Positions 46,570-63,234 of a DNA stretch of 64,000 nt are shown here, piece after piece (positions within the stretch are counted from its first letter, which is position 1; each line of letters begins with the position of its first letter). The DNA is taken from the IMG/VR virus record IMGVR_UViG_3300031992_000010. One strand, given 5' to 3'. The notes below the pieces were generated by a model. The model made no database searches. It saw only the letters and a program-made list of their open reading frames with translations, and was not told where the DNA came from. A program made the position numbers and the translations under genes. This DNA comes from a virus. Its lineage: Duplodnaviria; Heunggongvirae; Uroviricota; Caudoviricetes.

Positions 46570-47170
46570 AAGTAACGTTTTTAGATTGGAATTGGTACAA
46601 ATCAAAAACACCGAATTACGGAACGCCATTATCGGTTATTTCGAGAATTGCGTGCCCGAATATTTTTGGACTATGCCTGCATCGTCGACAGGTAAATACC
46701 ATCCGGATCAGGACTCCGGTGAGGGTGGCCTGGTAAGACATTCGCGTATGGTAACACAGGTGGCGATTGCGTTGTTGCAGTTGGAAATGTGGTCGACATT
46801 GAAACCTTATGAGGACGACATATATGCTGCCTGTTTAATCCACGATACGTGGAAGTTGGGTGATATGGTAACCGAATACGAACAAGGTAAAACATACTCG
46901 GTTCACGACCACCCATTATTTGCAAGCCACAAATTCTATGGATTTGTGCAGACGTGGCCCAACGCAAGCGATGAATTGAAAAAACATTGTCAAACAATAT
47001 GTCAATGTGTGGAAACACATATGGGTCAATGGAACAAGCCAAAGTTTCCCGGTGCCGGGCAGGTATTGAAAAAACCGGAATCGGCAATACAAAAATTCGT
47101 CCATTTATGTGATTATATCGCCTCACGGAATTTTATAGGCAATTTGGATAAGATTGATGGTAAAATATAA
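46562..47170 (+). CDS. HD-domain 5'-deoxynucleotidase (YfbR-like)
   Basis: LVRHSRMVTQVAIALL parallels YfbR NVSEHSLQVAMVAHALA; ACLIHDTWKLGDMVTE parallels LAMYHDASEVLTGDLPT. Confidence 0.5.
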   Translation: MDKSNVFRLELVQIKNTELRNAIIGYFENCVPEYFWTMPASSTGKYHPDQDSGEGGLVRHSRMVTQVAIALLQLEMWSTLKPYEDDIYAACLIHDTWKLGDMVTEYEQGKTYSVHDHPLFASHKFYGFVQTWPNASDELKKHCQTICQCVETHMGQWNKPKFPGAGQVLKKPESAIQKFVHLCDYIASRNFIGNLDKIDGKI

Positions 47171-47237
47171 TCGTAAATAATTAAAAATCATTACCATAAA
47201 TTTATTTTTATATAAATAACAAAAATTTAATAATTTT

Positions 47238-48011: not shown

Positions 48012-49632
48012 GAAAATAGCCATCGATGGTTTCAAGTCCTTTTATAAAAGAACGGAAATCGATTTCGATGATGTGAAAGGTTTGTGGAGAATTTCCGGTG
48101 ATGTAGGTGCCGGAAAAACAACCATTGGCGAGGCGATAATGTATGGATTATTCGGTGATGTTAAAGGTAAGAATAACGCCGCCCTTGTCTCGTGGGGCTT
48201 AAAAAAAGGATTTATAGAGGTATGGTGTGAAAGCGCCGGCCGGGACATATATATCAAACGTGAGTTTCGACTTCAAGGTCAGGCGTCATTATATGTAACC
48301 GTGGATGGTGAGGAATTAATATTCACCAACAAACGTGATGCGCAAGGCCAACTCGAAAGTGATTACTACGATATTTCCCGGATGACGTTGGAATTGTTGT
48401 GTATAGTAAGTTTTAATAACTTCAAGTCAATCACCACATTAAACGCGGCGGATACCAAAAAGTTCCTCGACCAGGTATTTGGTTTTTATATTATAACCCA
48501 ATATGCGGACGCCACAAAGGATCTCCGGAATGAATCGATTGAATTGGAGGGGGAAATAAAACAATCCATTAATAACATCCAAATGCAAATCAATAAGATT
48601 ATTGAGATGTCCAATAAAACCAAAATTGAGGGTGATATGGATAAAACCTTTGCCGATATGAAATCCCAAATATCATTGCAAAAACAGGCGAAGGAAAAAT
48701 TCATTAAATTCCAAACCGAACAAAATAAAATACTCCGGGAACTCCAATCAAAATTGTCGGAAATTAAGACGTTGGGTCTGAATAAGAAAAAGGAAATTGA
48801 TTTCATCAAACAAGGCATATGTCCTACCTGCGGTGCCCCGATAGACCAATCACAGTTGCCTATAAAGGAAAAGGAAAAGGAAATGTTGGGTGAACAATAT
48901 AAGGAGGTAAATGAAAAATACCAAACGGTTTCCGGCAGAATCACGGACCAACAAACCAAGTGGAGTAAAATTGATACCGAGTATGGCAGTAAGATAGTGG
49001 AATTGAGTTCGTTATATAATCGTCTTTTGGATCAATCAAAACGCACAAAAATCAATACGTCCGAGATAGATAAGTTAAATGGCGATATAAAGGATTTACA
49101 GGATAAACTCCTACTTGCGGAAAAGGATACGGAGGAATGGAATCAATTATTCGATTTGTTTACAACAAACATGAGGACGAATACCCTATCGAACTTCATT
49201 CCTATCCTAAATCAAAACATTGCGCGGTATATGTCGCAATTGCACCAACCTTACGAATTGAAGTTTTCAAACGACTTCAAAAGCGAGTTGATAATCTTTG
49301 GAGTCGACCGGCCAATACCGGTGAGTTCACTTTCGACCGGTCAATTAAAAACGGTGGATATGACCGCGATGTTGGGTGTGTTGAGTGTTATTATGCATAA
49401 TGTAAATTTTAATATAATGTTTTTGGATGAGTTAATTTCCAATATGCATAGTGACCTACGTGATATGGTTTGTGAGGTGTTGCGTTCATCCTTACATAAG
49501 GATCAAACAATATTCCTCATTTCCCATACCGACCTAAACAATACATACCTCGATGGCGAGATTGAGGCCAAAATGGAAATGACTAAAAAATTCAGTAGGG
49601 AAACCACAATAAAAATCAATAAGTTTAATTAA
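48001..49632 (+). CDS. Rad50/SbcC-like SMC-type ATPase (T4 gp46-like) with zinc hook
   Basis: N-terminal KIAIDGFKSFYKRTEIDF...GDVGAGKTTIGEAI Walker A; central coiled coils with CPTCG hook; C-terminal LSTGQ signature and MFLDE Walker B. Confidence 0.6.
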   Translation: MKVKKIAIDGFKSFYKRTEIDFDDVKGLWRISGDVGAGKTTIGEAIMYGLFGDVKGKNNAALVSWGLKKGFIEVWCESAGRDIYIKREFRLQGQASLYVTVDGEELIFTNKRDAQGQLESDYYDISRMTLELLCIVSFNNFKSITTLNAADTKKFLDQVFGFYIITQYADATKDLRNESIELEGEIKQSINNIQMQINKIIEMSNKTKIEGDMDKTFADMKSQISLQKQAKEKFIKFQTEQNKILRELQSKLSEIKTLGLNKKKEIDFIKQGICPTCGAPIDQSQLPIKEKEKEMLGEQYKEVNEKYQTVSGRITDQQTKWSKIDTEYGSKIVELSSLYNRLLDQSKRTKINTSEIDKLNGDIKDLQDKLLLAEKDTEEWNQLFDLFTTNMRTNTLSNFIPILNQNIARYMSQLHQPYELKFSNDFKSELIIFGVDRPIPVSSLSTGQLKTVDMTAMLGVLSVIMHNVNFNIMFLDELISNMHSDLRDMVCEVLRSSLHKDQTIFLISHTDLNNTYLDGEIEAKMEMTKKFSRETTIKINKFN

Positions 49633-49677
49633 ATTTTTTCCGGTTTCACAATATATTAATCCATAAAAATTCAATAT

Positions 49678-50490
49678 ATGCAAATAAATAGTGAGTTACC
49701 ATTATGTATGTTAAATATAGGAACGGCATTAAATGACTATGATTTTGTCCTCCTACATTTAATGGATAATGAAAAATACCTCAATTGGGTATTACGTCAA
49801 CGCCGGGAATGGCCGGATCGTTTGATGATAATGGATAATAGTGCATACGAATATTTTGTAAAAGGTGAGGAATTTAATCCAAAGTGGTATGCCGAAATGA
49901 TTGGTATTGTCAAACCGGACTATTATATTCTTCCGGATAAATTAATGGATAAGGATGTCACGTTGGAAAGATCCATCGAATATTTAAAAAAATATTCAAC
50001 GCGAGGCCTCGAACGACCACTTGCGGTGGCACAAGGCAATTCGGAGGAGGATTTGGTGGAATGTATCCTAAAATACAAGGAAATTGGTATTGAATACTTG
50101 GGTATTCCATTCCATCTAAAGTTCTACACCAAAATGGAACACGACTTCGATATTATAAAGGTTTTCAAGTCAAAATATCCGGAAATATCGGAGGATATAT
50201 TATATGCCATGGGCAGGGTACAATTCGTCCGCAATCATATGGATATAATAAATGAATTTCCAAAGGTTCATTTTCTTGGATCACATTGTCCGCTCGAAAA
50301 GGTTTTTTACAAATGGGGCAATGCCACGATGGATACCGGTTATCCGGTCAAGTTGGCGATGGAAGGTATAAAGTTATTCAAGGAGACCAAAAAACCGGAA
50401 ATTATCATTGATGATTTCCTATATAATAAATTAACGGACGAACAACAAGGTTTAATTATAAATAACGTAATGAAATTCAAATTGTTATGA
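49678..50490 (+). CDS. hypothetical protein; possible TGT/DpdA-like 7-deazaguanine DNA transglycosylase (speculative, based on position next to queC)
   Basis: 270 aa, Asp-rich conserved stretches; no motif verified. Confidence 0.25.
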   Translation: MQINSELPLCMLNIGTALNDYDFVLLHLMDNEKYLNWVLRQRREWPDRLMIMDNSAYEYFVKGEEFNPKWYAEMIGIVKPDYYILPDKLMDKDVTLERSIEYLKKYSTRGLERPLAVAQGNSEEDLVECILKYKEIGIEYLGIPFHLKFYTKMEHDFDIIKVFKSKYPEISEDILYAMGRVQFVRNHMDIINEFPKVHFLGSHCPLEKVFYKWGNATMDTGYPVKLAMEGIKLFKETKKPEIIIDDFLYNKLTDEQQGLIINNVMKFKLL

Positions 50491-51050
50491 GAATAATATT
50501 TACAGGGGCACAAGGAACCGGGAAAACAACGATTCTAAATCACTTTCAAGGCAAGCAACCTATTATAACGAATGTATGTAGAACGTTGGCAAAAAATGGG
50601 GTAAAAATAAATGAAATGGGCGATGACGAATCACAGGCGGCAATTTTTGATGTATATTACGACCTATTATCCCGAAAGAATTATATCAGCGACCGTGGTC
50701 TAACGGATGTGATGGCATATAGTAAGTGGTTATTTGAACACGGCCGTTTGAGTGAAAAGGAATGGAACCGTGAACAACGTATATTCAAAACATTCATCAA
50801 GGCATATCCGGCGATATACTTTTATTTCCCAATAGAATTTAGGATTGAGGATGATGGCGTCCGTTCCACGGATGAGGACTTCCGTAAGGAAATCGATACA
50901 AACATTCTAAAATCATTACAGGATAATCCGGAAATTCCGGGTCTTACGGTACACGGTAGTGTGGAGGAACGACTTGAATTTATCAACCGGATGCTACAAT
51001 TTTCAACAAGATTAATTAACGCATTTTCAATAAATGGAAAAATTATATAA
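50487..51050 (+). CDS. P-loop NTPase/kinase (AAA_28/NadR-C-like nucleoside or nucleotide kinase)
   Basis: IIFTGAQGTGKTTIL Walker A at the extreme N-terminus; ~185 aa. Confidence 0.45.
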   Translation: MRIIFTGAQGTGKTTILNHFQGKQPIITNVCRTLAKNGVKINEMGDDESQAAIFDVYYDLLSRKNYISDRGLTDVMAYSKWLFEHGRLSEKEWNREQRIFKTFIKAYPAIYFYFPIEFRIEDDGVRSTDEDFRKEIDTNILKSLQDNPEIPGLTVHGSVEERLEFINRMLQFSTRLINAFSINGKII

Positions 51051-51274
51051 TGAAAAATAATATGGAAAAGGAAACAACGGAAAAAACAACAACAGGCGGA
51101 ATCTCATTTTGTGGATTACTTACAATTGTATTTATAGTATTAAAATTAACCGGATTTATCGGTTGGAGTTGGTGGTGGGTATTGGCACCAATATGGGCTC
51201 CGGTGGCATTGGTCCTAACCTGTTGGATAATATTATGGACAATTGTTGGCATAAAAATTGGAATGAAAAAATAA
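51050..51274 (+). CDS. small double-TM membrane protein (paralogue of 3587..3778)
   Basis: see 3587. Confidence 0.45.
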   Translation: MKNNMEKETTEKTTTGGISFCGLLTIVFIVLKLTGFIGWSWWWVLAPIWAPVALVLTCWIILWTIVGIKIGMKK

Positions 51275-51286
51275 ATATTAAATAAT

Positions 51287-52021
51287 ATGGAAAAAAAGGT
51301 AGTTTTAAGTTTAAGTGGTGGGTTGGATTCCACGTGTCTTTTGATGACCTATTTGGCGAAAGGTGCGGAGGTCAAGGCCTATTCATTTAAGTATGGACAA
51401 AAACATTCCATCGAATTGGAGAAGGTTGTAAAAAACATCAAATTTCTTCAGGAAAAAGGTTTCAAGGTCGAACATCACATTATTGACCTAACGTCGGTAT
51501 TCAACGAAAGTTCAAGTTCATTATGCGGTGATGGGGGTGATATCCCGGAAGGCCATTATGCGGATGAAAATATGAAGTCCACCGTGGTTGAAAATCGTAA
51601 CGTAATCTTTAGTTCGATTATATTCGGTAAGGCATTAAGTTGGGCAAAACATACTGATTCGAATGTGGTAATTTCACTTGGCATCCACGCAGGCGACCAC
51701 GCCATCTATCCGGATTGTACACCACAATCACAACAGGCGGCCGAACATTTGTTTAAGATTTCAAACTGGGAATCGGAACGTGTATCCTATATGGCGCCGT
51801 TTGTAAATGTGGATAAAGGTGAGGTTCTTGGATTTGGATTGGAGGCAATGAAACAATTGAACTTTACGGAGGATGAAATCAACTTCGTATTGGGTAATAC
51901 CCACACCTGCTATAATCCCAACGAAAAAGGTGAAAGTTGTGGTAAATGTGGATCCTGCACGGAACGTTTGGAGGCATTCGAACATAACCATATCAAGGAT
52001 CCGGTACCTTATCAAAAGTAA
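51287..52021 (+). CDS. queC: 7-cyano-7-deazaguanine synthase QueC
   Basis: SLSGGLDS PP-loop, YGQKH, ENRNVIF (VPGRN), YPDC, C-terminal zinc cluster CGKCGSC; 244 aa. Confidence 0.8.
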   Translation: MEKKVVLSLSGGLDSTCLLMTYLAKGAEVKAYSFKYGQKHSIELEKVVKNIKFLQEKGFKVEHHIIDLTSVFNESSSSLCGDGGDIPEGHYADENMKSTVVENRNVIFSSIIFGKALSWAKHTDSNVVISLGIHAGDHAIYPDCTPQSQQAAEHLFKISNWESERVSYMAPFVNVDKGEVLGFGLEAMKQLNFTEDEINFVLGNTHTCYNPNEKGESCGKCGSCTERLEAFEHNHIKDPVPYQK

Positions 52022-52040
52022 TAACAAACAATTAAACAAT

Positions 52041-52313
52041 ATGGAACAACAGGATAACAAACAAAAAATGGTATGGTTTTCCATACCAAAGGAGGCGATC
52101 AAAAATAAAACGGCAAAGGCGGTATTGATAGCATTTGGCGGACCGGAAATATATTCCCACAAGGATATTCCATTACAATATAAGTGTTGGCTTCCATTTT
52201 CGAGGGTGACCGTAACGTCAATGAATGCGAATATGATGAAGGTTGAGTTGCCATTATGGCTGGCCGAAAAAAGTATTGTATCACAATATGCAACTTTACA
52301 GGGCCTGAATTAA
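52041..52313 (+). CDS. hypothetical protein (90 aa; start trimmed from track ORF 51873)
   Basis: first ATG after the queC stop. Confidence 0.4.
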   Translation: MEQQDNKQKMVWFSIPKEAIKNKTAKAVLIAFGGPEIYSHKDIPLQYKCWLPFSRVTVTSMNANMMKVELPLWLAEKSIVSQYATLQGLN

Positions 52314-52354
52314 ATTTTTTGATACAACCGTATATTTTAATAAAATTTTATATT

Positions 52355-52864
52355 ATGCAATTAACAGGAAAACAAATAACCGAAAAACAAATAATCACCA
52401 ACGTAGGCGAAAAATCCATCCAGCAACAAGGGGTGGATCTCCGCCTCAAACGTATAGGCCGCATTGACTATCGAGGCGATATGGGTGAAATGGGCTTCAT
52501 TCCTGCGGATGGCAGGACATCAACGCCTAAAACCGAATGGTATGAATCCGAATTTGAACAATACTCCATAACACTAATACCCGGATATTACGAGGTTGAA
52601 TTTATGGAGGGTTGCAATATCCCGGTAAATTGTTCCTTACAATTAAAATCACGTTCGTCGGTGGTGCGATGCGGCGGTGAGATTCGTAGTGGTCAATTTG
52701 ATGCGGGATTTAAGACCGACAATATCGGATGTTTTCTAAAGGTGGAGATACCAATGAGTGTGGAAATCGGTGCGAGAATGGCGCAGGCGTTGGTATTTGA
52801 ATCCTACCCGGTGGAAAACCTATATGATGGCCAATGGCAGGGGGATAAACAAAGAAAATCATAA
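52355..52864 (+). CDS. dCTP deaminase/dUTPase-superfamily protein
   Basis: GVDLRL (Dcd VDVRLG-like) and FDAGFKT (IDPGW/IDAGYRG-like) motifs. Confidence 0.45.
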   Translation: MQLTGKQITEKQIITNVGEKSIQQQGVDLRLKRIGRIDYRGDMGEMGFIPADGRTSTPKTEWYESEFEQYSITLIPGYYEVEFMEGCNIPVNCSLQLKSRSSVVRCGGEIRSGQFDAGFKTDNIGCFLKVEIPMSVEIGARMAQALVFESYPVENLYDGQWQGDKQRKS

Positions 52865-52987
52865 AAAATCCCCGGAATTATTAACAAAAAGGAGGTTGAA
52901 AACATATTATTTATATGAATTTAATTTCCAAGTCAGTAAACAATTTTAATTAACAATATTATCAACTTTTAAAAAATTTTTAACATT

Positions 52988-54082
52988 ATGGCACAAAATC
53001 AAAATGCAAACGATGATTTCGTAAACTCGTTAATGGATTTCGATCCACAAAACCTTTCAGTTTTCAAGGAACCGGAGAAAAAGGATTACAATGTAAACAT
53101 CTACAAAACCAATCCGGTTAAGTTCTCAAAATCCGAAGATGGACACTACCGCTCAAAGGTACGTATTATTTACAATCCATTCAGTACGGAACAATCAATT
53201 GTACGTAAGGTCTCATACGCATTAACGGATGCAAATGGTTTCTTTATGGCCGATTCAAAATTGTCAACCGGCGACCGTTCCTGCCCTATATTCACGGCCT
53301 GGAAAAAGGTATGGTTCAATAAAAACAAACCGGAGGACGAACGTAAGGCATTCTGCAAGGAGGTTTTCCAGCAAAATGATGAAAACTATGTATTGGTGCA
53401 AATTTTGGAGGATGAAAACCAACCTGATCTTGTAGGTCAATTCAAGGTATGGAAATTACCAAAGGCCGTTTACGACATTATGGAGGCAAAAATGAATCCA
53501 AAGCCTGAATCAAAGAAGAAACCGGTTGCGATTATGGACTACCTATTCGGTAAACCATTGGAAATCGACGTTGCACCAGGACCTGACGATCCAAAACATC
53601 CTGAACGTAAACAACGTGAGATTTCATACTCATTATGTTCATTCGCGGACGACAGCGAGCCAATCCGTAAGATTGATAATACCCCATTATTTACGGAGGA
53701 TGAACTTGAGTTGATCGAAACGTATATGGATGCGAAGGCAAAATACGAAAAGGCAAAGGAGGCCGATAAGGCAAAGAAATTGGCCGCCGCACAGGAATTG
53801 GTACCACAGGTGCGTGAGTTGTACAAAAAGGCGTTGGATTACCTACGTGAAAATTGCCTTGACATTGTTGAGGAGGTTGGATACAAGGAATGGTCTCCTG
53901 AATTGAGTCAACGTGTGGCAAAATTCATTGCAAATGCGGTACAATTCATCGATCCAAAAACGGTAATTGACAACCCATTACTACAAGGTGCGCCTGCATC
54001 GCCGGAGGAAACAAAACAGGTTGTTGAGGAAATGCAACCGACGGTTGTATCCGGAGGTGAAACCGACGACCTTCCATTCTAA
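52988..54082 (+). CDS. single-stranded DNA-binding protein (T4 gp32-like fold) with acidic C-terminal tail ending DDLPF
   Basis: basic/aromatic N-terminal region, Cys/His cluster; acidic tail with SSB-Ct-like DDLPF; 364 aa. Confidence 0.45.
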   Translation: MAQNQNANDDFVNSLMDFDPQNLSVFKEPEKKDYNVNIYKTNPVKFSKSEDGHYRSKVRIIYNPFSTEQSIVRKVSYALTDANGFFMADSKLSTGDRSCPIFTAWKKVWFNKNKPEDERKAFCKEVFQQNDENYVLVQILEDENQPDLVGQFKVWKLPKAVYDIMEAKMNPKPESKKKPVAIMDYLFGKPLEIDVAPGPDDPKHPERKQREISYSLCSFADDSEPIRKIDNTPLFTEDELELIETYMDAKAKYEKAKEADKAKKLAAAQELVPQVRELYKKALDYLRENCLDIVEEVGYKEWSPELSQRVAKFIANAVQFIDPKTVIDNPLLQGAPASPEETKQVVEEMQPTVVSGGETDDLPF

Positions 54083-54139
54083 CAAGTAACAAACGAACCG
54101 GGTGGGAAACCATCCGGTTTAAAAAAAATATGTATTAAT

Positions 54140-54664
54140 ATGACATTTAGTGAATTAAAGGCAAAAATAATTAGAGCCTGCGGTACAACCGTTTTAAATC
54201 GCCAATTGATTGAAAAACCAACGGATGCCGGATTTAGGAAAATATTGAGGTCCTGTACAATTCCGGGATTTCAAAAATACATCCGTCAATATTTTGAAAC
54301 GGTACTTGGTAAAATACAACCCGATCCACTTTCGGAAGTAAAAATTGTAACGGAGGATGAACCTGTTGAGGTTGAGGAAATTCCTACGGAGGAACCTGTA
54401 ACCGTAACGGAGGATGAACCTGTTAAGGTTGAGGAAACCATTGAGGAACAAACGGAGGAAACAACCGAACAACCCGAACCTGTTGATGATCAGGCAGCGG
54501 ATGTGGTTGAACAACCTACGGAGGTGATAATCCCCGACGAATCAATCGAGGAGCAACCCGAACCTGTTGATGATCAGGCAGCGGATGTAGTTGAACAACC
54601 TACGGAGGAACCTGTTGAGGCCGTTGAGGCAAAACCTAAAAAGAGAAAGGGACGTAAAAAATAA
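54140..54664 (+). CDS. acidic tandem-repeat protein with basic C-terminal tag (KPKKRKGRKK)
   Basis: EEPVEVEE / EQPEPVDDQAADVVEQPTE repeats from ~81-bp DNA repeats. Confidence 0.45.
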   Translation: MTFSELKAKIIRACGTTVLNRQLIEKPTDAGFRKILRSCTIPGFQKYIRQYFETVLGKIQPDPLSEVKIVTEDEPVEVEEIPTEEPVTVTEDEPVKVEETIEEQTEETTEQPEPVDDQAADVVEQPTEVIIPDESIEEQPEPVDDQAADVVEQPTEEPVEAVEAKPKKRKGRKK

Positions 54665-54675
54665 TCGTCATCATT

Positions 54676-54755
54676 AAAAAAAAAGGTCCGGGAATTAAAT
54701 TTTTCGGACCTTTTTTATATATTAATATGTAAGTTAAATTTAAAGGATTAAGGAT
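54676..54755 (+). promoter_or_regulatory. terminator hairpin AAAGGTCCGGGAATTAAATTTTTCGGACCTTTTTT plus promoter motif cassette
   Basis: near-identical to the cassettes at 4507..4570 and 4858..4920. Confidence 0.55.
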
Positions 54756-55076
54756 ATGAAAACAATATTTACATTCGGCGAAATAACAGGTGTTGATCTT
54801 TATATGAAAATTATACCAACGGATGAGTTCCGCTCGGTATGGGTTAAAAAGGTTGTTCGCAACGGCAATATGGTAACGTTGTATGACGCCCGCGATAAGG
54901 AATTGGTAACGGTTCCGGCCGATGCGACAAGCCATATCGGCAACAACTGCATCTTCTACTCGACCTACGGGGAAATCAATCAGGATAATCCAAAATATCA
55001 GGATGAATTCGGATATATTCGGGTTGCACGTTACCGTAACGGGGAGGAATTTTGGTCAGGCAAGTATTCATTTTAA
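54756..55076 (+). CDS. hypothetical protein (106 aa)
   Basis: ORF track; TAAGGATATG. Confidence 0.45.
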   Translation: MKTIFTFGEITGVDLYMKIIPTDEFRSVWVKKVVRNGNMVTLYDARDKELVTVPADATSHIGNNCIFYSTYGEINQDNPKYQDEFGYIRVARYRNGEEFWSGKYSF

Positions 55077-55096
55077 TAAAATAAAGGAGGATAAAT

Positions 55097-55339
55097 ATGG
55101 ATGTGGAACCTAATTTTTTGGAAATACCATATGTGGACGGAATCTCATACATTCGAATGTGTAAGGTTTCAAAGATTGAGTTTGAGGTGGATGAAAATAT
55201 TAACGGTGTAAACTACCGCATCACCATTCGATACGACGACGGAGGCATTGAGAGATTTTGCCTCCACGATGAAAACAAATGGAAAAAAATACGTGACAAA
55301 TTTTTGGATTATTGTGAGAAGTTAAATTCAAATGCATAA
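55097..55339 (+). CDS. hypothetical protein (80 aa)
   Basis: ORF track; AAGGAGGATAAATATG. Confidence 0.45.
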   Translation: MDVEPNFLEIPYVDGISYIRMCKVSKIEFEVDENINGVNYRITIRYDDGGIERFCLHDENKWKKIRDKFLDYCEKLNSNA

Positions 55340-55562
55340 TACAATGTGGCAGGCGGATAAGGTAAAAATTTTCGATTTCAAACTCGATGATACATCGGCC
55401 GTACATAATCAAACGGAGTTAAATGATTTTATTGAAAAACATACGGTCACAAACGTCCTCGCAAATACATATACCATAACCATCCGCTCGGCGGTGTTCA
55501 CATACATCCGCTATACGGTTTTTTATGAGGATAATTATTATACTCCGGAAAGTGACGAATAA
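55332..55562 (+). CDS. hypothetical protein (76 aa)
   Basis: ORF track. Confidence 0.4.
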   Translation: MHNTMWQADKVKIFDFKLDDTSAVHNQTELNDFIEKHTVTNVLANTYTITIRSAVFTYIRYTVFYEDNYYTPESDE

Positions 55563-55753
55563 TCGAAAATAAAATTTCAAAATTAAGGCGGTTTTTCTTG
55601 AGTTTAACAGGAGATCCGCCTTAACATAATAAATTATAAATGCCATGATGAGATCTCGCGGTAGGGCTCAAATAAATGGCAAAAAATTTTTTAAGGAAAA
55701 TATTAAATATTTTTCAAATTCTAAATATATTATGTTTAAATTTGTAAAATAAT
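55563..55753. promoter_or_regulatory. long intergenic regulatory region (candidate origin/ncRNA) sharing TTAAGGCGGTTTT and GAGATCTC with 37940..38101
   Basis: 9-bp stem hairpin TTAAGGCGG-N25-CCGCCTTAA; GAGATCTC palindrome; AT-rich run before the replication gene. Confidence 0.45.
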
Positions 55754-58700
55754 ATGAACGTTTCGTTAGAGCAAAGTTTGCAGGCATATAGGGTTTACCA
55801 TACTCCGGTAAATTTGACGTGGAAGCAGCATTATGTTACGGAACGATTTTCAAACGACAATATATTACTATGTCCGAAGGATGAGAGGGATAAATTCCTG
55901 GGCCGTTTGATGGAAGGTAATATAATGATAGCACCTAATATTAAGGCGCGTGAGGGTCAGGTATGTCATTTAAAGGATTTGATAAACACCGTGGTGAATC
56001 CGGCCAATAAAAATATATTGAAGGCAAACCGTAAGGTGGTATATAGTTCATCAACCACGGCACGTCCTATTGGTAAGGCCGCATTCGATTTATGGAATGG
56101 ATTTCAGGTAATCGATATGGATATCAAGGATGCCGGGATTTCCAACCGATTGAAGTCGGCGTTGTTTGAACGATTAAAAAAATTCAATTGGTTTTTGGGC
56201 ATCGCATTATCATCATCCGGGAAAGGCCTACACATATATACAAAAATACAAATACCGGAAAATGAAACCGACCCGGTTCAAAAACGTATATTATTCTTTA
56301 CCAATTTCCGTCATAAATATTCATTTGTATACCTTGCATGTATGAAATTGCAGGATGAAATTGGTTTTAATACGGATCAACTCATTCATTGGATGGACCT
56401 TGCGATGTTTAAGCCACAGCAAGGTGCATTTATTGGTTATGATGAAAATATATTGGTTAACTCCAACTTTTTTGAGGATTTTATTTATGTCAACTTCGAT
56501 AATATCGAGGATATTGGATACGATGGGGTAATCGATTGGGTTACGTATCCGGATTTAAAGGAGTTATTCAAACGTTGGGAATGGTTTGCGGAGGATAAGG
56601 ATGAGGAGATAGAGATTAATGTTAAGGAGGCCAGGCCATTGGAGGTGGATACCCATAATAAATTCCACTATAAACACCACGAACGTTGGAGGCTGGCAAA
56701 TACGCTGGTTAAACTTTATGGCCTACAAACAGGTACAAGATACCTTCGTATGATTTGTACCAACGATATTCCGACAAAGGAAATACAGGCCGACTGTGTT
56801 ACCGCCTCGCGTCACCAAAAGCCAATAGATGTTTGGGCCGTAAACCGTTTGAATACACAACACGGTTTCAAAATCAAACTTGACGTTGATTCCGCGGAGG
56901 AAAAAAAAGATGAGGATGATGCGATGTCGGTGATGGGGAAGGTTGAGTTGATAGATTCGCCCACGGCGATCAAATCATCCAAATTTTATAAGGAATTTCA
57001 TATAACAAAGGATCAATATTTGGGCGATATTAAAGGGGATTTATTAAAAAACGTGGGGAGGGTCACATTAATTGAGGCCGGGGCTGGTGTGGGTAAAACC
57101 GAAATGGTTAAGTCCCTCGTACGTGATGGAAAAAAGGTCATTATGGTGATGCCATTCACCTCGACGATTAAATCGAAGGTGGAAAATGTGGATGATTGGT
57201 ATTATTCATATGGTAACCGCAAGGTAAAACTCGATGGCAGCAAGGGGTTGGCAATGACAATAGATAAATTTTCCCGCCTGAATCTTATGGATGTCAAGGA
57301 GTGGGGATTTGATTATATATTTATTGATGAGTCCCACCTTCTATTTCAATCCGAATACCGGCCTATTATGCCAAAGGTAATCGAAATGATTTGTAATACG
57401 GAGGTACCGATTATATTAATGTCGGGAACCCCTGTTGGTGAAACCATTTTCTTTGAAAATCTTATACATTTAAAGGTTATAAAGGAGGAAACAAGACAAA
57501 AGGAGTTCCGGGTACATATTACGGATAATCCCGGTCACCAATTGTTTTACCTATGTAATGCGATGGCGGAGGATATAGTTAACGGCCGCCGTGTATTATT
57601 TCCGACAAATAAGGGAACCGCATTTAAGGAACAGGTCGAGGCCGGGTTGAAGGAAATACTTGAATCCAAATATGCGTGGTTTGAGGACCTGAATGTAAAC
57701 TATTATAAAAAATCAAACGTGGGTGAGGAGTTTATGAATAAGATAAATGTGGACAAAACAATCAAGGATACCCACGTACTTATGTGCTCGACATACCTAT
57801 CCGTAGGTGTGGATATTTTGGATAAATATAAATTTAATATATATTTCGACGAATTATGGATGCCACAGGAGGTGGAACAGTTCGCCAATAGATTGAGGGC
57901 AAACGATTTGTTCATAAATCTATTTATAGCAAAAAATACCAACGAAGGTGAGTCCCGGAATATATATACATATCGTAAACTTGACCTTAATCTCGACCCT
58001 AATGAGGTAAAGGATGCCCACGCCCTGGTTCAATTGGCAAACGCCTCAATACAACGTTCTCCGCTTGAATATCGGTATAATACGTTGGTGTCCAATATTA
58101 TTAAGGCAAGTAAGTTTATTGAATATGATGATGTGGATAATCGTTATAGAATCAACGCAATAGCATATAAGGTAATAAATTTTGAACATCGTTATCGGGA
58201 TTATGTACAGCAACTTATGGTCCTCATCCGTGGGATGCAGGATTATGGATACCAATATTCCATCACCGATAAATCCGGTGAAAACCTCAATAGTGATGCT
58301 TGGCAGGCCTTCAATGTGGTAACACACGCGGCGAAGGATGAACGTGAACGTATCAATGCCAAACATATTGATGAGTTATTGGATATTATTACCGACGACC
58401 GCCTGGGTATATACAAATCGGTTTTGTCCGGTGAGTTTGATATCAAAAAGGGTGCGGATTGGACCGAGAATATTAGAAAACGGGAAATGACCGTAAAAAA
58501 TATTGAAATATTTGAAAAGGTTATTCCGTTATTTGTGTCCATGACGAAAATGTATTCGGTGGATGATGTGAAGGAAATATTTTACTTTTGTCGAAAAGGT
58601 AATTTATACAATTTCGCCGCAATTAGAAGATTGAGAACATTAATTAACATATTTTATTATAACAAACAAAAAAGATTGGATATACCATTTGCCGATTATA

Positions 58701-59032
58701 TGAAGGATGTATATGAATTGGCGGAGGAGCCGAGAACCAAACAGGAGATGTTTGATTTCCTCGAAAATGAAACCAATAAGTATGCCAAAAATGATTCCAC
58801 GGAGGATATTGATATAACGAAATCACCGTTAACGATGGAAGGAATCAAAAAGGCGTTGGATGGTATATTAAAATGTTTATGTACCGTAAAAAGAAAAAAT
58901 AAAAAATTTATATTGGAAAAAAATGAATTAATATGGAAGGAAAAGGAAACGGACTCCGAGTTTATAAATAAAAAATTCGAATTGAGTGAGTTCCTCGACG
59001 ACCTGATTGTAACTATGGAGGAGGCAAAGTAA
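55754..59032 (+). CDS. putative primase-helicase: N-terminal AEP/PrimPol-like domain fused to a DExH-box helicase
   Basis: IDMDIKD (hhhDhD), GKGLHIYTK (sGxGxH), GAGVGKTE Walker A, IFIDESHLLF DExH box; 1092 aa. Confidence 0.5.
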   Translation: MNVSLEQSLQAYRVYHTPVNLTWKQHYVTERFSNDNILLCPKDERDKFLGRLMEGNIMIAPNIKAREGQVCHLKDLINTVVNPANKNILKANRKVVYSSSTTARPIGKAAFDLWNGFQVIDMDIKDAGISNRLKSALFERLKKFNWFLGIALSSSGKGLHIYTKIQIPENETDPVQKRILFFTNFRHKYSFVYLACMKLQDEIGFNTDQLIHWMDLAMFKPQQGAFIGYDENILVNSNFFEDFIYVNFDNIEDIGYDGVIDWVTYPDLKELFKRWEWFAEDKDEEIEINVKEARPLEVDTHNKFHYKHHERWRLANTLVKLYGLQTGTRYLRMICTNDIPTKEIQADCVTASRHQKPIDVWAVNRLNTQHGFKIKLDVDSAEEKKDEDDAMSVMGKVELIDSPTAIKSSKFYKEFHITKDQYLGDIKGDLLKNVGRVTLIEAGAGVGKTEMVKSLVRDGKKVIMVMPFTSTIKSKVENVDDWYYSYGNRKVKLDGSKGLAMTIDKFSRLNLMDVKEWGFDYIFIDESHLLFQSEYRPIMPKVIEMICNTEVPIILMSGTPVGETIFFENLIHLKVIKEETRQKEFRVHITDNPGHQLFYLCNAMAEDIVNGRRVLFPTNKGTAFKEQVEAGLKEILESKYAWFEDLNVNYYKKSNVGEEFMNKINVDKTIKDTHVLMCSTYLSVGVDILDKYKFNIYFDELWMPQEVEQFANRLRANDLFINLFIAKNTNEGESRNIYTYRKLDLNLDPNEVKDAHALVQLANASIQRSPLEYRYNTLVSNIIKASKFIEYDDVDNRYRINAIAYKVINFEHRYRDYVQQLMVLIRGMQDYGYQYSITDKSGENLNSDAWQAFNVVTHAAKDERERINAKHIDELLDIITDDRLGIYKSVLSGEFDIKKGADWTENIRKREMTVKNIEIFEKVIPLFVSMTKMYSVDDVKEIFYFCRKGNLYNFAAIRRLRTLINIFYYNKQKRLDIPFADYMKDVYELAEEPRTKQEMFDFLENETNKYAKNDSTEDIDITKSPLTMEGIKKALDGILKCLCTVKRKNKKFILEKNELIWKEKETDSEFINKKFELSEFLDDLIVTMEEAK

Positions 59033-59033
59033 A

Positions 59034-59951
59034 ATGGAATCAACCGACAAAAACATTATTCAAATTTATTTCAAGGAAATAAATGACATCTACACGGCAA
59101 ATAATAACGACTATGATATAGAGTATTGTGCCGAGAATCGTGAGAAACTAATTCAAATGAACCTAAAATCGGTAATACATATTGCCAAAAAATATGTGGG
59201 TTTGGGTGTACCGTTGGAGGATCTTATATCCGCGGGCAATGTGGGATTATGTATAGCATACGATCACTATGACCCTAACCGCAATACATTAAAACAACAG
59301 GTTCTAAAAATCCTGAAGGAAAAGGACGATTTTATTCCATATGATGAAATGGGTGAGGTATTCACATTGATATCGTATGGTGCGTTGAGTAAAAAGTTTG
59401 CGGCCGATTTTCCGGAGGAGGGAATGTATAACAAACAAAAACTAATTGATTGGGTGCATAAGAATGTATTCTCCGCAAAATTTAATTCGATTGCGGCTAT
59501 GTGGATTCGTGCCCATATAATGCAGGAAATTGATAATAACTCCCGCCTTGTAAGAAAACCGAAGGTGATAATTTATAAGGATAAACAGGAATCCAATACA
59601 TATCAAACGGAAATACTTACGGACCTGACCGGGTTGGATAAGGATGATGATTATGCAGTGGATGGTAATACAATCCCGGAGGTAAAGGAATCATACAAAA
59701 CATTCAAGGCAAACCTGAACCTGTTATTGGACGGTGTTTGTTCCCGCGATAGGGGAATATTGTTGAAAAAATTTGGTATTGGCCTTCCACGTCCAATGTT
59801 ACCAAAGGAGATAGCGGATCAGGAGGGATTATCAATTGCCCGTATATCGCAAATCATCCAAAATACCACCGAAAAAATGATTGTGAATAGTAAAAAATAC
59901 AATATAAATAGTAAACAGATGTATGACGATTTACAAAATATGACGTTCTAA
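59034..59951 (+). CDS. sigma-70-family RNA polymerase sigma factor
   Basis: region 2 LIQMNLKSVIHIAKKYVGLGVPLEDLISAGNVGLCIAYDHYDP; region 4 HTH LPKEIADQEGLSIARISQIIQNTTEKM. Confidence 0.7.
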   Translation: MESTDKNIIQIYFKEINDIYTANNNDYDIEYCAENREKLIQMNLKSVIHIAKKYVGLGVPLEDLISAGNVGLCIAYDHYDPNRNTLKQQVLKILKEKDDFIPYDEMGEVFTLISYGALSKKFAADFPEEGMYNKQKLIDWVHKNVFSAKFNSIAAMWIRAHIMQEIDNNSRLVRKPKVIIYKDKQESNTYQTEILTDLTGLDKDDDYAVDGNTIPEVKESYKTFKANLNLLLDGVCSRDRGILLKKFGIGLPRPMLPKEIADQEGLSIARISQIIQNTTEKMIVNSKKYNINSKQMYDDLQNMTF

Positions 59952-59954: not shown

Positions 59955-59981
59955 AATAACGGGGCTCACGCCCCGTTTTTT
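59955..59981. terminator. bidirectional intrinsic terminator AAAAAATAACGGGGC-TCAC-GCCCCGTTTTTTAT between convergent genes
   Basis: 8-bp GC stem flanked by A-tract and T-tract. Confidence 0.7.
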
Positions 59982-62900
59982 ATGCATTTGGTTTATATTG
60001 AACCTTAACGCCATCGGCAATAAGTGTATTATTAATATCCGAAAGTTCCTCAAGAATATCCTTAAATACCTGCATTTGTTCCTCGTCATATTCCTTACGT
60101 TCCTTTTTCTCGGCATCACTTTCACCACCTGCAACAAAATCAACGGCGTCGCCGATAAAGCCACCAATACCCGATTTAACCCTACCGGCCATGGCACTGA
60201 TCTTTGCACCCAAACCTTCACTGCCACCATTCGCATCCTCAAGGGCGCCGGAAAGTCTTTCAAGGGCGTTTATAAGTCTATCGCTTATGGCATCCGCAAG
60301 TTTATCAAAATTACCATCGATGGTATCGCTGAATTTTGTAAGTTTATCAAGAACACCGGCCAATGCATTTGCCTTACTTGTATCTATCTTATTGATACTT
60401 TCAATAAATTTGGTATTATTATCAATAAATTCCGGGAATCCATCACCGAACTCGGCATCACTTACATTTTCAACAACCCTACTTAAATCCTTTGATATAT
60501 CGACCAATTTACCGGAAATATCGGCGGCCTTTTCAATATTATTAAAATCAACCTTTCCAACCCAATCGGATATACCGAGAACCATATTGGCCACATTTGT
60601 TGAAAGTAAAGGTAACTCCGACCGAAGCGAACCCTCATTGAATGCATCACAAATTGTTTGACAACCTTCCAACACGGCCATCAATCCCTCCATAACATCA
60701 GGAACCTCATCAAGCCCATCCTTCGCGGCATCCATATACTCCTCAAATACATCATCCCACCAATCCTCCGCCTCACTTAACTGCATACCCATTGCCATCG
60801 CATCCATAAAGCCAAGTATAAGTTGTTGGATTGTATATGTAATCATACCTTGATTTCCGTGTACCCAATCAATAAGATTGATGGTTTCACCATTAACCTC
60901 GATGGTACCCTCGGCAAAGTTTTTAACCATATCAATCAGGTCATAAACAGGACCGACACATTCACCCAATTCCTCCATAAAATCAACACGGTGGGCGACA
61001 CGTTTACACGTTTGCCAGTCGATTGAGGATATGGCATTTGCAAAACCTGTTATTAATGTGGTAAGATTATCACCTATTTTATCCAACATACCATTATTGA
61101 ACATTTCAATAATGTTATACTCAACCTCCCGGCCATCCCTTGTAAATGTAAATCTACCATCGGCCATATCCTTAATGACACCAATCATTTGGGCCAATGC
61201 CGCGGACGCAGGACCTATTGTCATCGCAATTAAATTTGCCTTAACAATGGCCTTTCCGAGGGATGCCAATGGAACCGAAAGGATTGCATCAACAAATGAT
61301 GTTATCAATGTAGGAATATTTGCCATCGCCTCCGTAACCTTTTCCTTATTGGATGCAACTTCGACGATTATTTGAATTGCCTCCACAATCGTTTTTATGG
61401 CGGTTGCCAACATTAACGCCGCCGCTCCAATGGAAATAAATGCGGCAATTGCCAATGCTATTACCACCCCGCCTACCCCGGATGCACAAAATGTTCCCAC
61501 GGCGATAAACATTCCAACCAACATCATTGCGGTAACAACAAACGAACCTACGGCAACAAGGGCCATACCACTATCCACCGATTCGGTTACAATTTTAATC
61601 GCATATGCTATCGCCAATACACCAACGGAAAGTGCAAGAATGGAGAATATTGTCCCCATATCAATATTGGCCTCCTGAATGGCCTTTTCCATAAATATCA
61701 CGGCGGCCACAACACCTCCTAATATTAACATATCAATAAGGATTTGCCCGATTGAAATACCCTCAAACATCCAATTAATAATCCACAATACACCGGCAAG
61801 TAATAATGTGGCGGCGGTAACCGTTATAAGATTTTTGGCAATTTCCGCCCATCCGCCCAATACGTCATTTACACCAAATTGAACGAATTTTAATAATATT
61901 AACATACCAATGGTGATAAGAAGTAATCCGCCAAGACCCAACAAGGCCTTTCCAATATGTTTGGTATTTATCTCACCAAGTATATACAATACCCCTGTCA
62001 ATAATAATAATGCACCGGATAATATCAATAACGATAACATTGGTTTTGTAAGGTCCTCCGGTTTAAGGAATTTACCTATCAGCCAAAATATTCCAACAAC
62101 AATACCCATTATAAGGATGACCGCCCCAAGTCCAAGCATAATATCCTTGAAGTTTTCCTTTACGGTTAAACTCATAACCGATATAAGGAATAACGAGGTT
62201 GTAAATGAAAGGAATACAACACTAATCAATGCCATACTCTTTAATGCATTCCAAAGGCCTTTGTTGAACTTCTCATCGTTTAATGCCCCGCATAATTTTT
62301 CAACCGACCAAATTACCAAACGGAATACCCACACAAATCCTGCAAATACCAACGCTGCAGGGATGGCCACGATTGATAACAACCCCATAACAATCATTGT
62401 GGTCGTCATACTTGTAATTAGGGATTTAAATGAACCCCAACTTTTCTCAAATTCCTTTTGTTTTTTGGTCCAACGATTTGAAAATACGGTAAGTGTTGCA
62501 ACCACCTTTTTAATGACATCAAATAAATTATCGATTGTTTTATATACCAATTTTGCGGCGATATTAACCGCAATTGATTTCTTACCCAATCCAATTACCG
62601 TTTGGGCAATATCCTTCATTGATGACATAATAATGGCAAGTTCCTTGAATGCACCTCCGGTTCCCGGCTCGATCCATTTTTTCTCCTCCGTTTTTTGTTT
62701 ATTACCCACTATTTCGGTAACAACGGCATTCATAACCTTTTCGGTTTTTATGGTGGATAAAAATTCCTTGTTATCCTTCAAAATTTTATCCATCCCCTTG
62801 AATATATCCTTGAAAACAAGTTGAAGTTTCTTCATATATACCGGCATCAAAAATACCGTTTTCCAATCAACCAACTTCAACATTTCCATCGTACCGCTCA

Positions 62901-63234
62901 CAATACTTACAAATGGTGATATAATGGATGCGATATTTCCTTTTTCATCGACCACAAATTTACCTTGTCCGTCCCGAAGGGCAAGATTTTTAACAAATTC
63001 GTTTACATCCAAAATACTTTTGGTATCAATTTCATTACATATATCCTTGAGTGAGCCAATGGCCGACATCAAACTTGTAACAATAATCGGAAATGTTCTT
63101 CCAAAGTTTATTGCATCCTTCACCTTTATACTTTTATTGAAGGATGTTACCAATTCCGATATGTTTGGTAACATTTTTTGGGTGAGATTGACAAGTTCGG
63201 TTATATCCTCAACTTTGGGTAAGTTTAATGCCAT
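59980..63234 (-). CDS. large membrane-spanning virion protein (tape-measure-like or ejection protein), 1084 aa
   Basis: ORF track; at least 8 predicted TM helices in the central third; long helical N-terminal and C-terminal regions; strand switch suggests a structural module. Confidence 0.45.
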   Translation of the reverse strand: MALNLPKVEDITELVNLTQKMLPNISELVTSFNKSIKVKDAINFGRTFPIIVTSLMSAIGSLKDICNEIDTKSILDVNEFVKNLALRDGQGKFVVDEKGNIASIISPFVSIVSGTMEMLKLVDWKTVFLMPVYMKKLQLVFKDIFKGMDKILKDNKEFLSTIKTEKVMNAVVTEIVGNKQKTEEKKWIEPGTGGAFKELAIIMSSMKDIAQTVIGLGKKSIAVNIAAKLVYKTIDNLFDVIKKVVATLTVFSNRWTKKQKEFEKSWGSFKSLITSMTTTMIVMGLLSIVAIPAALVFAGFVWVFRLVIWSVEKLCGALNDEKFNKGLWNALKSMALISVVFLSFTTSLFLISVMSLTVKENFKDIMLGLGAVILIMGIVVGIFWLIGKFLKPEDLTKPMLSLLILSGALLLLTGVLYILGEINTKHIGKALLGLGGLLLITIGMLILLKFVQFGVNDVLGGWAEIAKNLITVTAATLLLAGVLWIINWMFEGISIGQILIDMLILGGVVAAVIFMEKAIQEANIDMGTIFSILALSVGVLAIAYAIKIVTESVDSGMALVAVGSFVVTAMMLVGMFIAVGTFCASGVGGVVIALAIAAFISIGAAALMLATAIKTIVEAIQIIVEVASNKEKVTEAMANIPTLITSFVDAILSVPLASLGKAIVKANLIAMTIGPASAALAQMIGVIKDMADGRFTFTRDGREVEYNIIEMFNNGMLDKIGDNLTTLITGFANAISSIDWQTCKRVAHRVDFMEELGECVGPVYDLIDMVKNFAEGTIEVNGETINLIDWVHGNQGMITYTIQQLILGFMDAMAMGMQLSEAEDWWDDVFEEYMDAAKDGLDEVPDVMEGLMAVLEGCQTICDAFNEGSLRSELPLLSTNVANMVLGISDWVGKVDFNNIEKAADISGKLVDISKDLSRVVENVSDAEFGDGFPEFIDNNTKFIESINKIDTSKANALAGVLDKLTKFSDTIDGNFDKLADAISDRLINALERLSGALEDANGGSEGLGAKISAMAGRVKSGIGGFIGDAVDFVAGGESDAEKKERKEYDEEQMQVFKDILEELSDINNTLIADGVKVQYKPNA

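Follow-up and report, generated by a model that had tools for sequence, protein, structure and literature searches.

The 64,000-nucleotide stretch of viral DNA considered here (IMG/VR record IMGVR_UViG_3300031992_000010, Caudoviricetes; hereafter the window) carries, as the last gene of a long plus-strand array, a gene for a protein termed sigma-A, and the locus raises two questions: whether sigma-A is a working phage sigma factor of the sigma-70 family and, if so, which of the phage promoters it reads. Its membership of the sigma-70 family is supported by profiles, fold and genomic context, and, as judged from its sequence, sigma-A very probably functions as a sigma and turns the core RNA polymerase (RNAP) of the host to phage promoters; with regard to the promoters, a relay from one promoter class to another is tentatively favored.

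59034..59951, plus strand: sigma-A gene, sigma-70 family, 305 amino acids (aa), open reading frame (ORF) with ATG start, stop codon included.

The start of this gene cannot be moved upstream, since its frame is closed at positions 59010-59012 of the window. The Pfam model Sigma70_r2 (PF04542) recognizes the protein with 32.6 bits, above its gathering score of 24, the match being limited to aa 39-84, which correspond to profile positions 1-46 of 71, whereas Sigma70_r4 (PF04545), taken alone, remains below its threshold of 24.1, with 11.3 bits and an expectation value (E) of 0.25. The NCBIfam model TIGR02937, a superfamily model not specific for the extracytoplasmic function (ECF) sigmas, reaches 67.3 over aa 144-282 against a cut-off of 42.9, and phrog_351, named 'RNA polymerase sigma factor', matches aa 34-282 with an E of 1.6e-21. 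By sequence, the nearest solved proteins are SigA, RpoS, and RpoD: phmmer pairs sigma-A with residues 131-181 of Bacillus subtilis SigA at an overall E of 4.7e-12, and a profile of the sigma-A family aligns with SigA regions 2.1-2.2 (independent E 3.5e-11) and with SigA 264-358, corresponding to region 4 (independent E 7e-4). In the RpoD and RpoS equivalog models, sigma-A stays far under every cut-off (for RpoS, 71.7 versus 378.7). The AlphaFold model of sigma-A, with a predicted local distance difference test (pLDDT) of 76, retrieves 116 PDB chains with Foldseek at E<=1e-3; all 50 of the matches listed are sigma factors or RNAP complexes containing one, and the alignments to sigma factors cover sigma-A over its whole length. 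An earlier note on this DNA had described a phage-encoded sigma-70-family protein with clear regions 2 and 4, and the first part of this description is borne out by Sigma70_r2, phrog_351, TIGR02937, the fold, and the phage context. The adjective needs qualification: both regions are present, but region 2 is split by an insert of ~65 aa, the sigma-3 domain is missing, and region 4, which does not pass in Pfam, is supported by TIGR02937, the family profile, AlphaFold, and Foldseek.

The domain composition of sigma-A, read along the gene, is as follows.

59046..59099, plus strand: region 1.2-like N-terminal helix, aa ~5-22, NIIQIYFKEIND.
59130..59282, plus strand: regions 2.1-2.2, core-binding helices, aa ~33-83.
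59283..59474, plus strand: family-specific insert of ~65 aa between regions 2.2 and 2.3, a small four-helix module, aa ~84-147.
59475..59576, plus strand: regions 2.3-2.4, for melting and -10 recognition, aa ~148-181, KFNSIAAMWIRAHIMQEIDNNSRLVRKP.
59577..59681, plus strand: short linker replacing the sigma-3 domain, with an acidic 3.2-like stretch, LTGLDKDDDYAVDG.
59682..59897, plus strand: region 4, helix-turn-helix, aa ~217-288, recognition helix LSIARISQI.

The assignment of region 1.2 comes from three sources: the RpoS model TIGR02394, which aligns with sigma-A aa 5-83, the family profile, whose alignment with SigA 97-181 begins at DPVRMYLKEIG, and the AlphaFold model, with a helix at aa 2-22. 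Invariant positions in regions 2.1-2.2 include N43, L44, A51, K52, G68, N69, G71, L72, D80, and R83. The segment KFNSIAAMWIRAHIMQEIDNNSRLVRKP aligns with SigA 2.3-2.4 and is also covered by TIGR02937; on its own it matches weakly (independent E 11-36), since it is parted from regions 2.1-2.2 by the 65-aa insert. In alignments with solved proteins, this insert has no counterpart in any solved sigma, and manual mapping places its entry point between the equivalents of R423 and K426 of Escherichia coli sigma-70, two residues that in other sigmas help to form the pocket receiving the flipped -11 base. According to this mapping, Y430 is replaced by I, W433 by M, Q437 by A, and T440 by M, with W434 and R436 kept, and, in region 4.2, R584 is replaced by I, E585 by A, and R588 by S, with R586 and Q589 kept. 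Neither Sigma70_r3 nor Sigma70_r1 of Pfam matches sigma-A even at E<=10; only ~20 aa lead from region 2.4 to the stretch that the profile aligns with SigA 3.2 (PIGEEDDSHLGDFIED), and pLDDT falls below 50 at aa 196-213. The helix-turn-helix domain is modeled at aa 214-288 with pLDDT 85-94, and its invariant residues are G248, I249, G250, P252, R253, P254, E259, I260, Q263, E264, S267, A269, R270, Q273, and I274; the recognition helix, LSIAR[IV]SQI, is invariant in the relatives and is, together with regions 2.3-2.4, the best-conserved part of the family.

Sigma-A thus keeps the parts needed for sigma function (1.2, 2.1-2.2, 2.3-2.4, 3.2-like, and 4), in a combination of an ECF-like domain count with an RpoD/RpoS-like sequence flavor, and its build is unusual in both the domain-2 insert and the lost sigma-3 domain. 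Its region 4 sets it apart from the gp55 type and its region 1.2 from the strict ECF sigmas, while the absence of a sigma-3 domain separates it from the primary-like sigmas. The replacement of the melting aromatics (Y430 by I and W433 by M in the alignment) and the breaking up of domain 2 by a large insert could also be taken as signs of a decoy, which would occupy the host core polymerase or bind a host factor and in this way shut off host transcription; this is very unlikely, as conservation is highest in regions 2.3-2.4 and in the recognition helix, where contacts with DNA would be made, and many functional alternative sigmas lack these aromatics.

The protein occurs in identical form on 14 metagenomic contigs, the longest of ~210 kb, and has 986 relatives at E<=1e-3; a search of 1.84 billion representatives returned 61 clusters at E<=1e-30. 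The family matches listed that align in full length as a single stretch were taken to span the insert, whereas ordinary cellular sigmas align with sigma-A in pieces ending at it. Most members measure ~400 aa and have an additional N-terminal ~90 aa, which the clade of the window (305-317 aa) lacks. The top profile matches are cellular RpoS, RpoD, and SigA, and two family matches lie on contigs labeled as bacterial metagenome-assembled genomes (MAGs), as would be expected of a mis-binned bacterial sigma or a recent capture from the host. Such a cellular origin is scarcely credible: the insert family is discrete, with ~15 members of known context on phage-like contigs, several of them of 130-240 kb, near a helicase gene; the two MAG contigs are fragments of 13.9 and 1.9 kb; and identity to cellular sigmas is confined to short stretches.

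The phage context can be traced further: over 14,967 nt, the window matches the ENA contig k141_6601392 (ERZ27257202) of 210,090 bp with 100% identity; the source is an uncultured ~210-kb jumbo phage of the T4 superfamily, from gut or rumen, belonging to a widespread lineage. A T4-type terminase, portal, sheath, and major head protein are found in the 210-kb context, and the genes for portal, tail sheath, major head protein, DNA polymerase B, and terminase are also present on other contigs belonging to this phage species. Among GenBank phages, no useful near match was obtained for the sigma protein or for 14 kb of the DNA, and the closest approach to cultured phages is provided by the gene that precedes sigma-A.

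55754..59032, plus strand: primase/helicase-like gene, 1092 aa, co-transcribed with sigma-A (1-nt gap).

This gene matches phrog_3022 (DNA primase) at E 8e-5 and Pfam DEAD with 24.8 bits, below the gathering score of 26. Its product is 25-28% identical to gp68 of the Sphingomonas phage PAU, the PTm1 helicase, and the MA9V homologue, and homologues occur in PAU, the Chryseobacterium phages MA9V-1 and MA9V-2, and the Tenacibaculum phages PTm1, PTm5, and pT24. These relatives have genomes of 213-235 kb and are described as jumbo myoviruses; the terminase of MA9V-1 is T4 gp17-like. The host of PAU is reported to be Sphingobacterium (in a reference cited in PMC10537231), and therefore all the hosts of these cultured relatives are Bacteroidota. 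A scarcity of Shine-Dalgarno (SD) sequences and a preference for A at -3 are described for Bacteroidota (PMC6847099), and the same pattern is found in the window, where an SD-like sequence precedes 22 of 119 ORFs, leaving 81% of the genes without one, and where 63% of the genes have A at -3; T at -1 (71%) is favored as well. Bacterial genomes were uninformative as to the host, as only the two short MAG contigs, labeled Clostridia and Parabacteroides, were obtained.

A homologue of ~1090 aa lies upstream of the sigma gene in the three related contigs examined, directly adjoining it in two of them and separated from it by a 243-aa methyltransferase gene in the third (L009), and in all three the sigma gene is embedded among co-directional replication and nucleotide-metabolism genes. 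The link with the helicase is thus conserved, and the position at a strand switch, found in the window, is not. One related phage contig (L007 15196-16912) has an insertion, flanked by a NUDIX gene and a gp32-like gene, that consists of an IS605-type OrfB/TnpB gene with a Cas12f-like TNB domain and a Y1 transposase gene; the sister contig L008 is without them.

With regard to other transcription factors, no RNAP was found in the ~140 kb of phage genome examined, no gp55 or gp33 families appear among the matched PHROG families listed for the ~170 ORFs scanned, and no additional sigma genes emerged in the window and its flanks, either from hmmsearch using the profile of the sigma-A family or among the families listed in PHROG scans of 118 ORFs of the window and 28 of the flanks, one of these scans listing 25 of its 27 matched families. 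This is the situation described for the relatives: Iyer et al. 2021 place PTm1 in the jumbo-phage 'group 2.2', without an RNAP of its own, and all group 2 jumbo phages carry sigma factors, some minimal and some RpoD-like, together with a gp33 homologue (PMC7824862); a 2026 review agrees, in general terms, that jumbo phages without RNAP carry sigmas (PMC13282480). Sigma-A is a new family member of an already known kind of phage gene and not a new principle; the result is correct and useful for annotation, and will not surprise specialists, to whom the use of sigmas by large phages to take over the host polymerase is familiar.

The second question, that of the promoters, centers on a two-box cassette, a conserved motif already pointed out in the earlier note as the obvious candidate promoter class for this sigma or for the host sigma it replaces. 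The motif itself is real: TTAAATTT-N13-17-TATATT occurs in 15 exact copies versus 0.16 expected (maximum of 2 in 100 shuffles), all of them on the plus strand and typically with the spacing TTAAATTT-N15-TATATT, and, with a matrix derived from them, 21 sites are detected in the window, every one of them on the plus strand.

3275..55731, plus strand: cassette class, at least 24 copies by motif and matrix, with box starts at 3275, 4516, 4868, 7615, 10421, 11803, 13303, 15776, 16975, 20807, 26974, 27866, 29151, 31104, 32805, 34846, 38600, 40830, 43897, 44489, 49629, 52310, 54695, and 55703.
54685..54723, plus strand: full cassette upstream of the helicase/sigma-A operon, exact match, in the form of a hairpin GGTCCGGGAA-TTAAATTT-TTCGGACC with a T-run, then TATATT.
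55703..55731, plus strand: variant cassette TTAAATAT-N15-TATATT, 22 nt upstream of the helicase/sigma-A operon.
4500-4545, 4852-4897, 32790-32835, 38585-38630, and 54679-54725: terminator-promoter fusions.
4536, 4888, 7635, 20827, 26994, 27886, 32825, and 54715: near-palindromes over the -10 box, perfect at 7635 and 20827.

Nearly all the cassettes lie 20-40 nt upstream of a start codon, mostly in gaps between genes. With the first T of TATATT taken as -12, the boxes fall at about -35 to -28 (TTAAATTT) and at -12 to -7, so that TTAAAT-17-TATATT, the top dyad in an unbiased dyad count, has the classical sigma-70 geometry. The spacer varies while the boxes remain constant, and some copies are clear duplicates that arose together with paralogous genes. 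In five cassettes, a strong G+C-rich hairpin precedes a T-run and has TTAAATTT as its loop, with fold energies of -9.5 to -20 kcal/mol; the same 40 nt consequently serve both as an intrinsic terminator and as the place of the -35-like box of the promoter that follows. The hairpin at 54685..54723, one of the five, has a fold energy of -20.4 kcal/mol. In eight cassettes, the -10 box is placed inside an 18-bp near-palindrome, TTATATATTAATAT[AG]TAA, which could be an operator for a dimeric regulator or a mere consequence of TA repeats. The first genes after cassettes are enriched in SD sequences (10/24 vs 11/84, Fisher p=0.006).

The distribution of the cassettes among genes separates two classes. 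In two additional contigs of this phage species and in the locus around its second sigma gene, cassettes stand before small genes and those for DNA polymerase B, NrdD, a helicase of the DEAD type, and a phosphoesterase, and none is found upstream of the portal, sheath, and gp13-like neck genes, the terminase and amidase operons, or a 1084-aa gene convergent with sigma-A. The upstream regions of the genes without cassettes are enriched in TTTTTT, TTTTAT, TATTAT, and TTATTA (58 regions vs 98 regions of internal genes); this cassette-less promoter class is poorly defined and could partly represent a translation signal. A T4-like late motif, TTTTTATAAAAA or TATAAATA, was considered and rejected, the few striking cases (the divergent region between neck and terminase, the amidase, and a second sigma gene, sigma-B, in two relatives) being too few to define a class. 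Two cassettes, at 54695 and 55703, stand before the helicase/sigma-A operon, no strong terminator intervenes from the cassette at 54685..54723 to position 59958, and the sigma-A gene itself appears to be transcribed from these candidate promoters.

That sigma-A reads the cassette that stands before its own operon is possible and, on balance, doubtful. In this reading, region 4 would contact TTAAATTT (-35 to -28), and regions 2.4 and 1.2 would contact TATATTAA (-12 to -5); in a self-reinforcing version, sigma-A would drive the whole early and replication array together with its own operon, leaving the structural genes to sigma-B or a gp55-like factor. The sigma-70 geometry of the top dyad agrees with such a role, and the cassette is the only over-represented promoter-like signal in the 64 kb. 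The comparison with the host points in the same direction: in Flavobacterium promoters, T-12, A-11, T-8, T-7, T-6, and G-5 are nearly invariant (PMC6847099), while the cassettes have AA, AT, or TT at -6/-5 in all copies, a misfit with the Bacteroidota consensus in which every copy breaks two near-invariant positions, and host-type promoters are not enriched in the window, either as TAnnTTTG (95 vs 84+-10 expected) or as the two-box TTTG-N15-23-TAnnTTTG (3 vs 5.6 expected). In addition, the structural Arg and Gln of the recognition helix are kept in sigma-A and lost in sigma-B, and among relatives TTAA[AG]TTT...TATATT is found upstream of the helicase gene in L009, with similar boxes in L011 and L017 preceding an ORF that was read only by eye as a helicase. 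On the other side, the sigma-A gene would lie behind the very promoters it needs, with no other promoter visible, while genes 28, 33, and 34 of SPO1 and 55 of T4 are transcribed by the preceding class. The relatives also include cases with an identical recognition helix and almost no boxes: in the 21-kb loci of L019-L021, there are 0-1 TTAARTTT boxes versus 3.5-5 expected, and L016, whose helix was not recovered by the pattern, has none.

A scan of IMG/VR with the short cassette pattern gave mostly single chance matches among those listed, and with a longer pattern two more contigs of this phage species were reached. Unbiased dyad counts for other two-box promoters in the relatives returned coding repeats and terminators only. 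Inspection of relatives by eye showed, in most of them (L008, L015, L016, L020), a T-run with a TATAT or TATTAT motif upstream of genes. In the cultured relatives PAU, PTm1, and MA9V-1 (L025, L026, L027), TATATTTG or TATATTTA, which resemble the host-like TAnnTTTG, is found upstream of genes after a T-run, and also upstream of the MA9V-1 sigma gene; PAU has, in addition, a repeated TTTAGTATAAT.

That both promoter classes show a T-run and a TAT(A/T)AT-type element, and that relatives without boxes have this element upstream of the replication genes near sigma-A, may also be explained if sigma-A were a general sigma for all the phage promoters, acting through a shared -10 (T-run with TATATT or TATTAT). 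TTAAATTT would then be an add-on for timing or strength, read by sigma-B, by a MotA-like activator, or by a dimeric regulator, and the near-palindrome TTATATATTAATAT[AG]TAA over the -10 in eight cassettes would fit the latter. This explanation is unlikely: the shared element is short and AT-rich in a genome with 37% G+C, where the likeness may be trivial, and a second sigma would be left without a role.

This second sigma is found in the same phage, beyond the limits of the window.

L159 10001-11431 (ENA ERZ27256871 k141_5301785), outside the window, ~37 kb beyond 59951: sigma-B, with N- and C-terminal extensions.

Sigma-B, of 476 aa, is encoded on one of the additional contigs of this species; it is recognized by phrog_351 (E 2e-18) and shares with sigma-A 32% identity over regions 2.3 to 4.2 (E 4e-10), the DDDYA motif, and the absence of sigma-3; sequence inspection places a shorter insertion, of ~24 aa, at the 2.2/2.3 junction. 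A 99%-identical copy lies on a 162,418-bp contig together with sigma-A, ~37 kb apart and on the opposite strand; members of its 90% cluster occur on contigs of 210,240 and 204,027 bp, equal in bp to contigs bearing sigma-A; and the clusters of both proteins were found in the same samples. Sigma-B is thus a sigma-A paralogue of the same phage. Its gene has no cassette upstream and is accompanied by the genes for the T4-like terminase, the gp13-like neck protein, NrdD, and DNA polymerase B. The recognition helix, MTPAMVTHIV, is without the structural Arg and Gln and varies between lineages, with at least four types across the sigma-B family; type 1 occurs with cassettes in two lineages and type 2 without them in one, a covariation between helix type and cassette presence that is suggestive at n=3-4.

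The three circumstances described, namely an operon of its own behind cassettes, an invariant helix in relatives where boxes are scarce, and the presence of a second sigma paralogue, weaken the connection between sigma-A and the cassette; because of them, the motif, although real as such, is only a possible promoter of sigma-A. The reading preferred here, although held with less than even confidence, is a relay in which the cassette class would give rise to sigma-A and sigma-A to the cassette-less late class. Sigma-A, cassette-driven along with DNA polymerase, NrdD, helicases, and many small genes, would be made during the early and replication phase, as we infer from the position of its gene under the cassette class; it would bind the host core RNAP, displace the host primary sigma, and then most likely direct the cassette-less promoters, with a T-run and a TATTAT or TATAAA-like -10 element, of the portal, sheath, neck, terminase, and lysis genes and of sigma-B. 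Region 4 might serve mainly to anchor sigma-A to the beta flap, and the domain-2 insert, beside the -11 pocket residues, may stand in for the missing sigma-3 domain, which is a guess. For the cassettes, the reader would be a different factor, which could be sigma-B or the holoenzyme of the host. The relay is favored by the invariance of the sigma-A recognition helix even where the TTAARTTT box is absent.

Several observations weigh against the relay. The motif of the late type, AT-rich and poorly delimited, lies near start codons and could be a translation signal. For the host holoenzyme as reader of the cassettes, the difficulty is that no host-type promoter is enriched in the window and that all cassettes depart, with A-6 and A-5, from the near-invariant T-6 and G-5 of the host; this misfit favors a phage factor, for which sigma-A, with R270 and Q273 kept, would be a candidate. 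For sigma-B in the same role, the difficulty is that its own gene, without a cassette, looks late, a poor fit with the reading of early cassettes. Finally, homologues of gp55 or gp33 may lie in the remaining ~70 kb of the genome. An extended form of the relay, in which jumbo phages of Bacteroidota would run a two-sigma program that never uses host-type promoters, is improbable; sigma-B would be packaged, injected, and open the TTAAATTT/TATATTAA cassettes, leading to sigma-A and then to the cassette-less late promoters, and the four-helix module of sigma-A would contact the spacer or a partner protein, replacing the role of sigma-3.

The position of the sigma-A gene in the window was also among the observations of the earlier note. 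It is indeed the last gene of a plus-strand array extending over 3304-59951 (56.6 kb), and the sign of the GC skew agrees, being positive throughout the array, changing at both ends, and negative on either side. The array ends at the following elements.

59958..59977, either strand: bidirectional intrinsic terminator between sigma-A and the 1084-aa gene, AACGGGGC-TCAC-GCCCCGTT.
59980..63234, minus strand: convergent 1084-aa gene (ORF), with coiled-coil-like ends and a hydrophobic middle of ~400 aa.

The terminator has an 8-bp stem with 6 G-C pairs and a loop of 4, an A-run upstream and a T-run downstream, and scores on both strands; the gap between the sigma-A stop and that of the convergent gene is 28 nt. 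Convergence through a bidirectional terminator is thus confirmed, but not the label 'structural-type' given to the 1084-aa gene, for which profile scans found no Pfam or PHROG family. The location at a strand switch, read in the note as an early/structural boundary, is particular to this phage, as relatives have the sigma gene inside the replication module. The composition of the 1084-aa protein, and its composition only, resembles that of a tape-measure or ejection protein, a putative assignment; the start of its gene is only 79-84% identical between strains. Beyond this gene (window 63235-64000; L001, L002, and L003 14200-16100), strains otherwise 99% identical differ, with a 372-aa minus-strand gene in one and a 566- or 596-aa plus-strand gene in others.

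Elsewhere in the window, several genes of RNA-ligase families (phrog_968, 562, 548, 8238), a polynucleotide kinase, and QueC are encoded at 20000-37000 and 51287-52018, and relatives additionally carry QueD-like (PTPS) and radical-SAM genes, a set that suggests RNA repair and 7-deazaguanine DNA modification. At the left end, the genes of a block on the minus strand (1-3238) encode glycosyltransferase-like proteins (TOD1_MUCI70), and the left flank (L022 1-711 and 18194-19270) two pentapeptide-repeat proteins (DUF5758) and an Amidase_3 endolysin operon. The tRNA and Rfam scans of the window returned nothing.

To our knowledge, almost nothing is known about transcription control in phages of Bacteroidota, the dominant gut phylum. 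Promoters of Bacteroidota differ from the textbook type; the two sigma paralogues and the sharply defined non-host cassette, with no visible host-type promoter, offer a concrete, testable system for the Bacteroides core polymerase. In the engineering of Bacteroides, the cassette could find use as an orthogonal part for expression, whether its built-in terminator is included or not. Among the closest known systems are the RpoD-like sigmas of the group 2 jumbo phages (PMC7824862), which, like this phage, have a T4-type core, genomes of ~210-235 kb, and Bacteroidota hosts, lack an RNAP of their own, and carry sigma-70-family sigmas thought to recruit the host core enzyme, as proposed here for sigma-A; among them, MA9V-1 ORF23 and PAU gp1 are annotated as sigma factors, both of them with little similarity to the sigma-A family and without its insert. 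The similarity of the sigma-A family to MA9V-1 ORF23 is marginal (hhalign E 0.005, probability 7%), and that of sigma-B is weak (BLASTP E 0.028); ORF23 differs in the lack of the 2.2/2.3 insert, in a long C-terminal extension, and in a gene that does not adjoin the helicase.

In T4, the likeness extends to the gp17-like terminase and, in relatives of this phage, to gp13-, gp32-, and gp2-like Pfam matches, and the cassette-less promoters of this phage have the look of TATAAATA-like elements with a -10 only. The late sigma of T4, gp55, works with gp33 and the sliding clamp. It is a minimal sigma without region 4 (PMC7824862), whereas sigma-A has regions 4 and 1.2 and matches the general phrog_351. 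The cellular sigmas RpoS, RpoD, and SigA, and those of group 3, provide the best profile and structure matches and have regions 1.2, 2.1-2.4, 3.2-like, and 4 in the same order; sigma-A is unlike groups 1-2 in having neither region 1.1 nor sigma-3, and in its 65-aa insert at the 2.2/2.3 junction. The ECF sigmas (group 4) share with sigma-A the pair of sigma-2 and sigma-4 domains joined by a short linker and the pass in TIGR02937, but not the region 1.2 helix nor the primary-sigma-like sequence of 2.1-2.2; a phage example of the ECF-like type is presumably gp36 of phiEco32.

In SPO1, gp28 and gp33/gp34 are phage sigma-70-family factors that replace the host sigma on the host core, as proposed here for sigma-A, and there is likewise more than one phage sigma (PMC13401047). 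A kinship of sigma-A with SPO1 gp28/gp34, with which the earlier note had suggested a comparison, did not emerge by tblastn: among 50,697 GenBank phage records, the sole matches at E<=1e-5 were two uncultured fragments; SPO1 differs in having no detectable sequence similarity to sigma-A, in a host of another phylum, and in a late factor split into two proteins, instead of the two paralogues with region 1.2 and domain-2 insertions of this phage. The SPO1 program is a timed relay, in which every sigma gene depends for its transcription on the promoter class before it, and by analogy the relay proposed for sigma-A, from the cassettes to the cassette-less late promoters, would follow the same logic.

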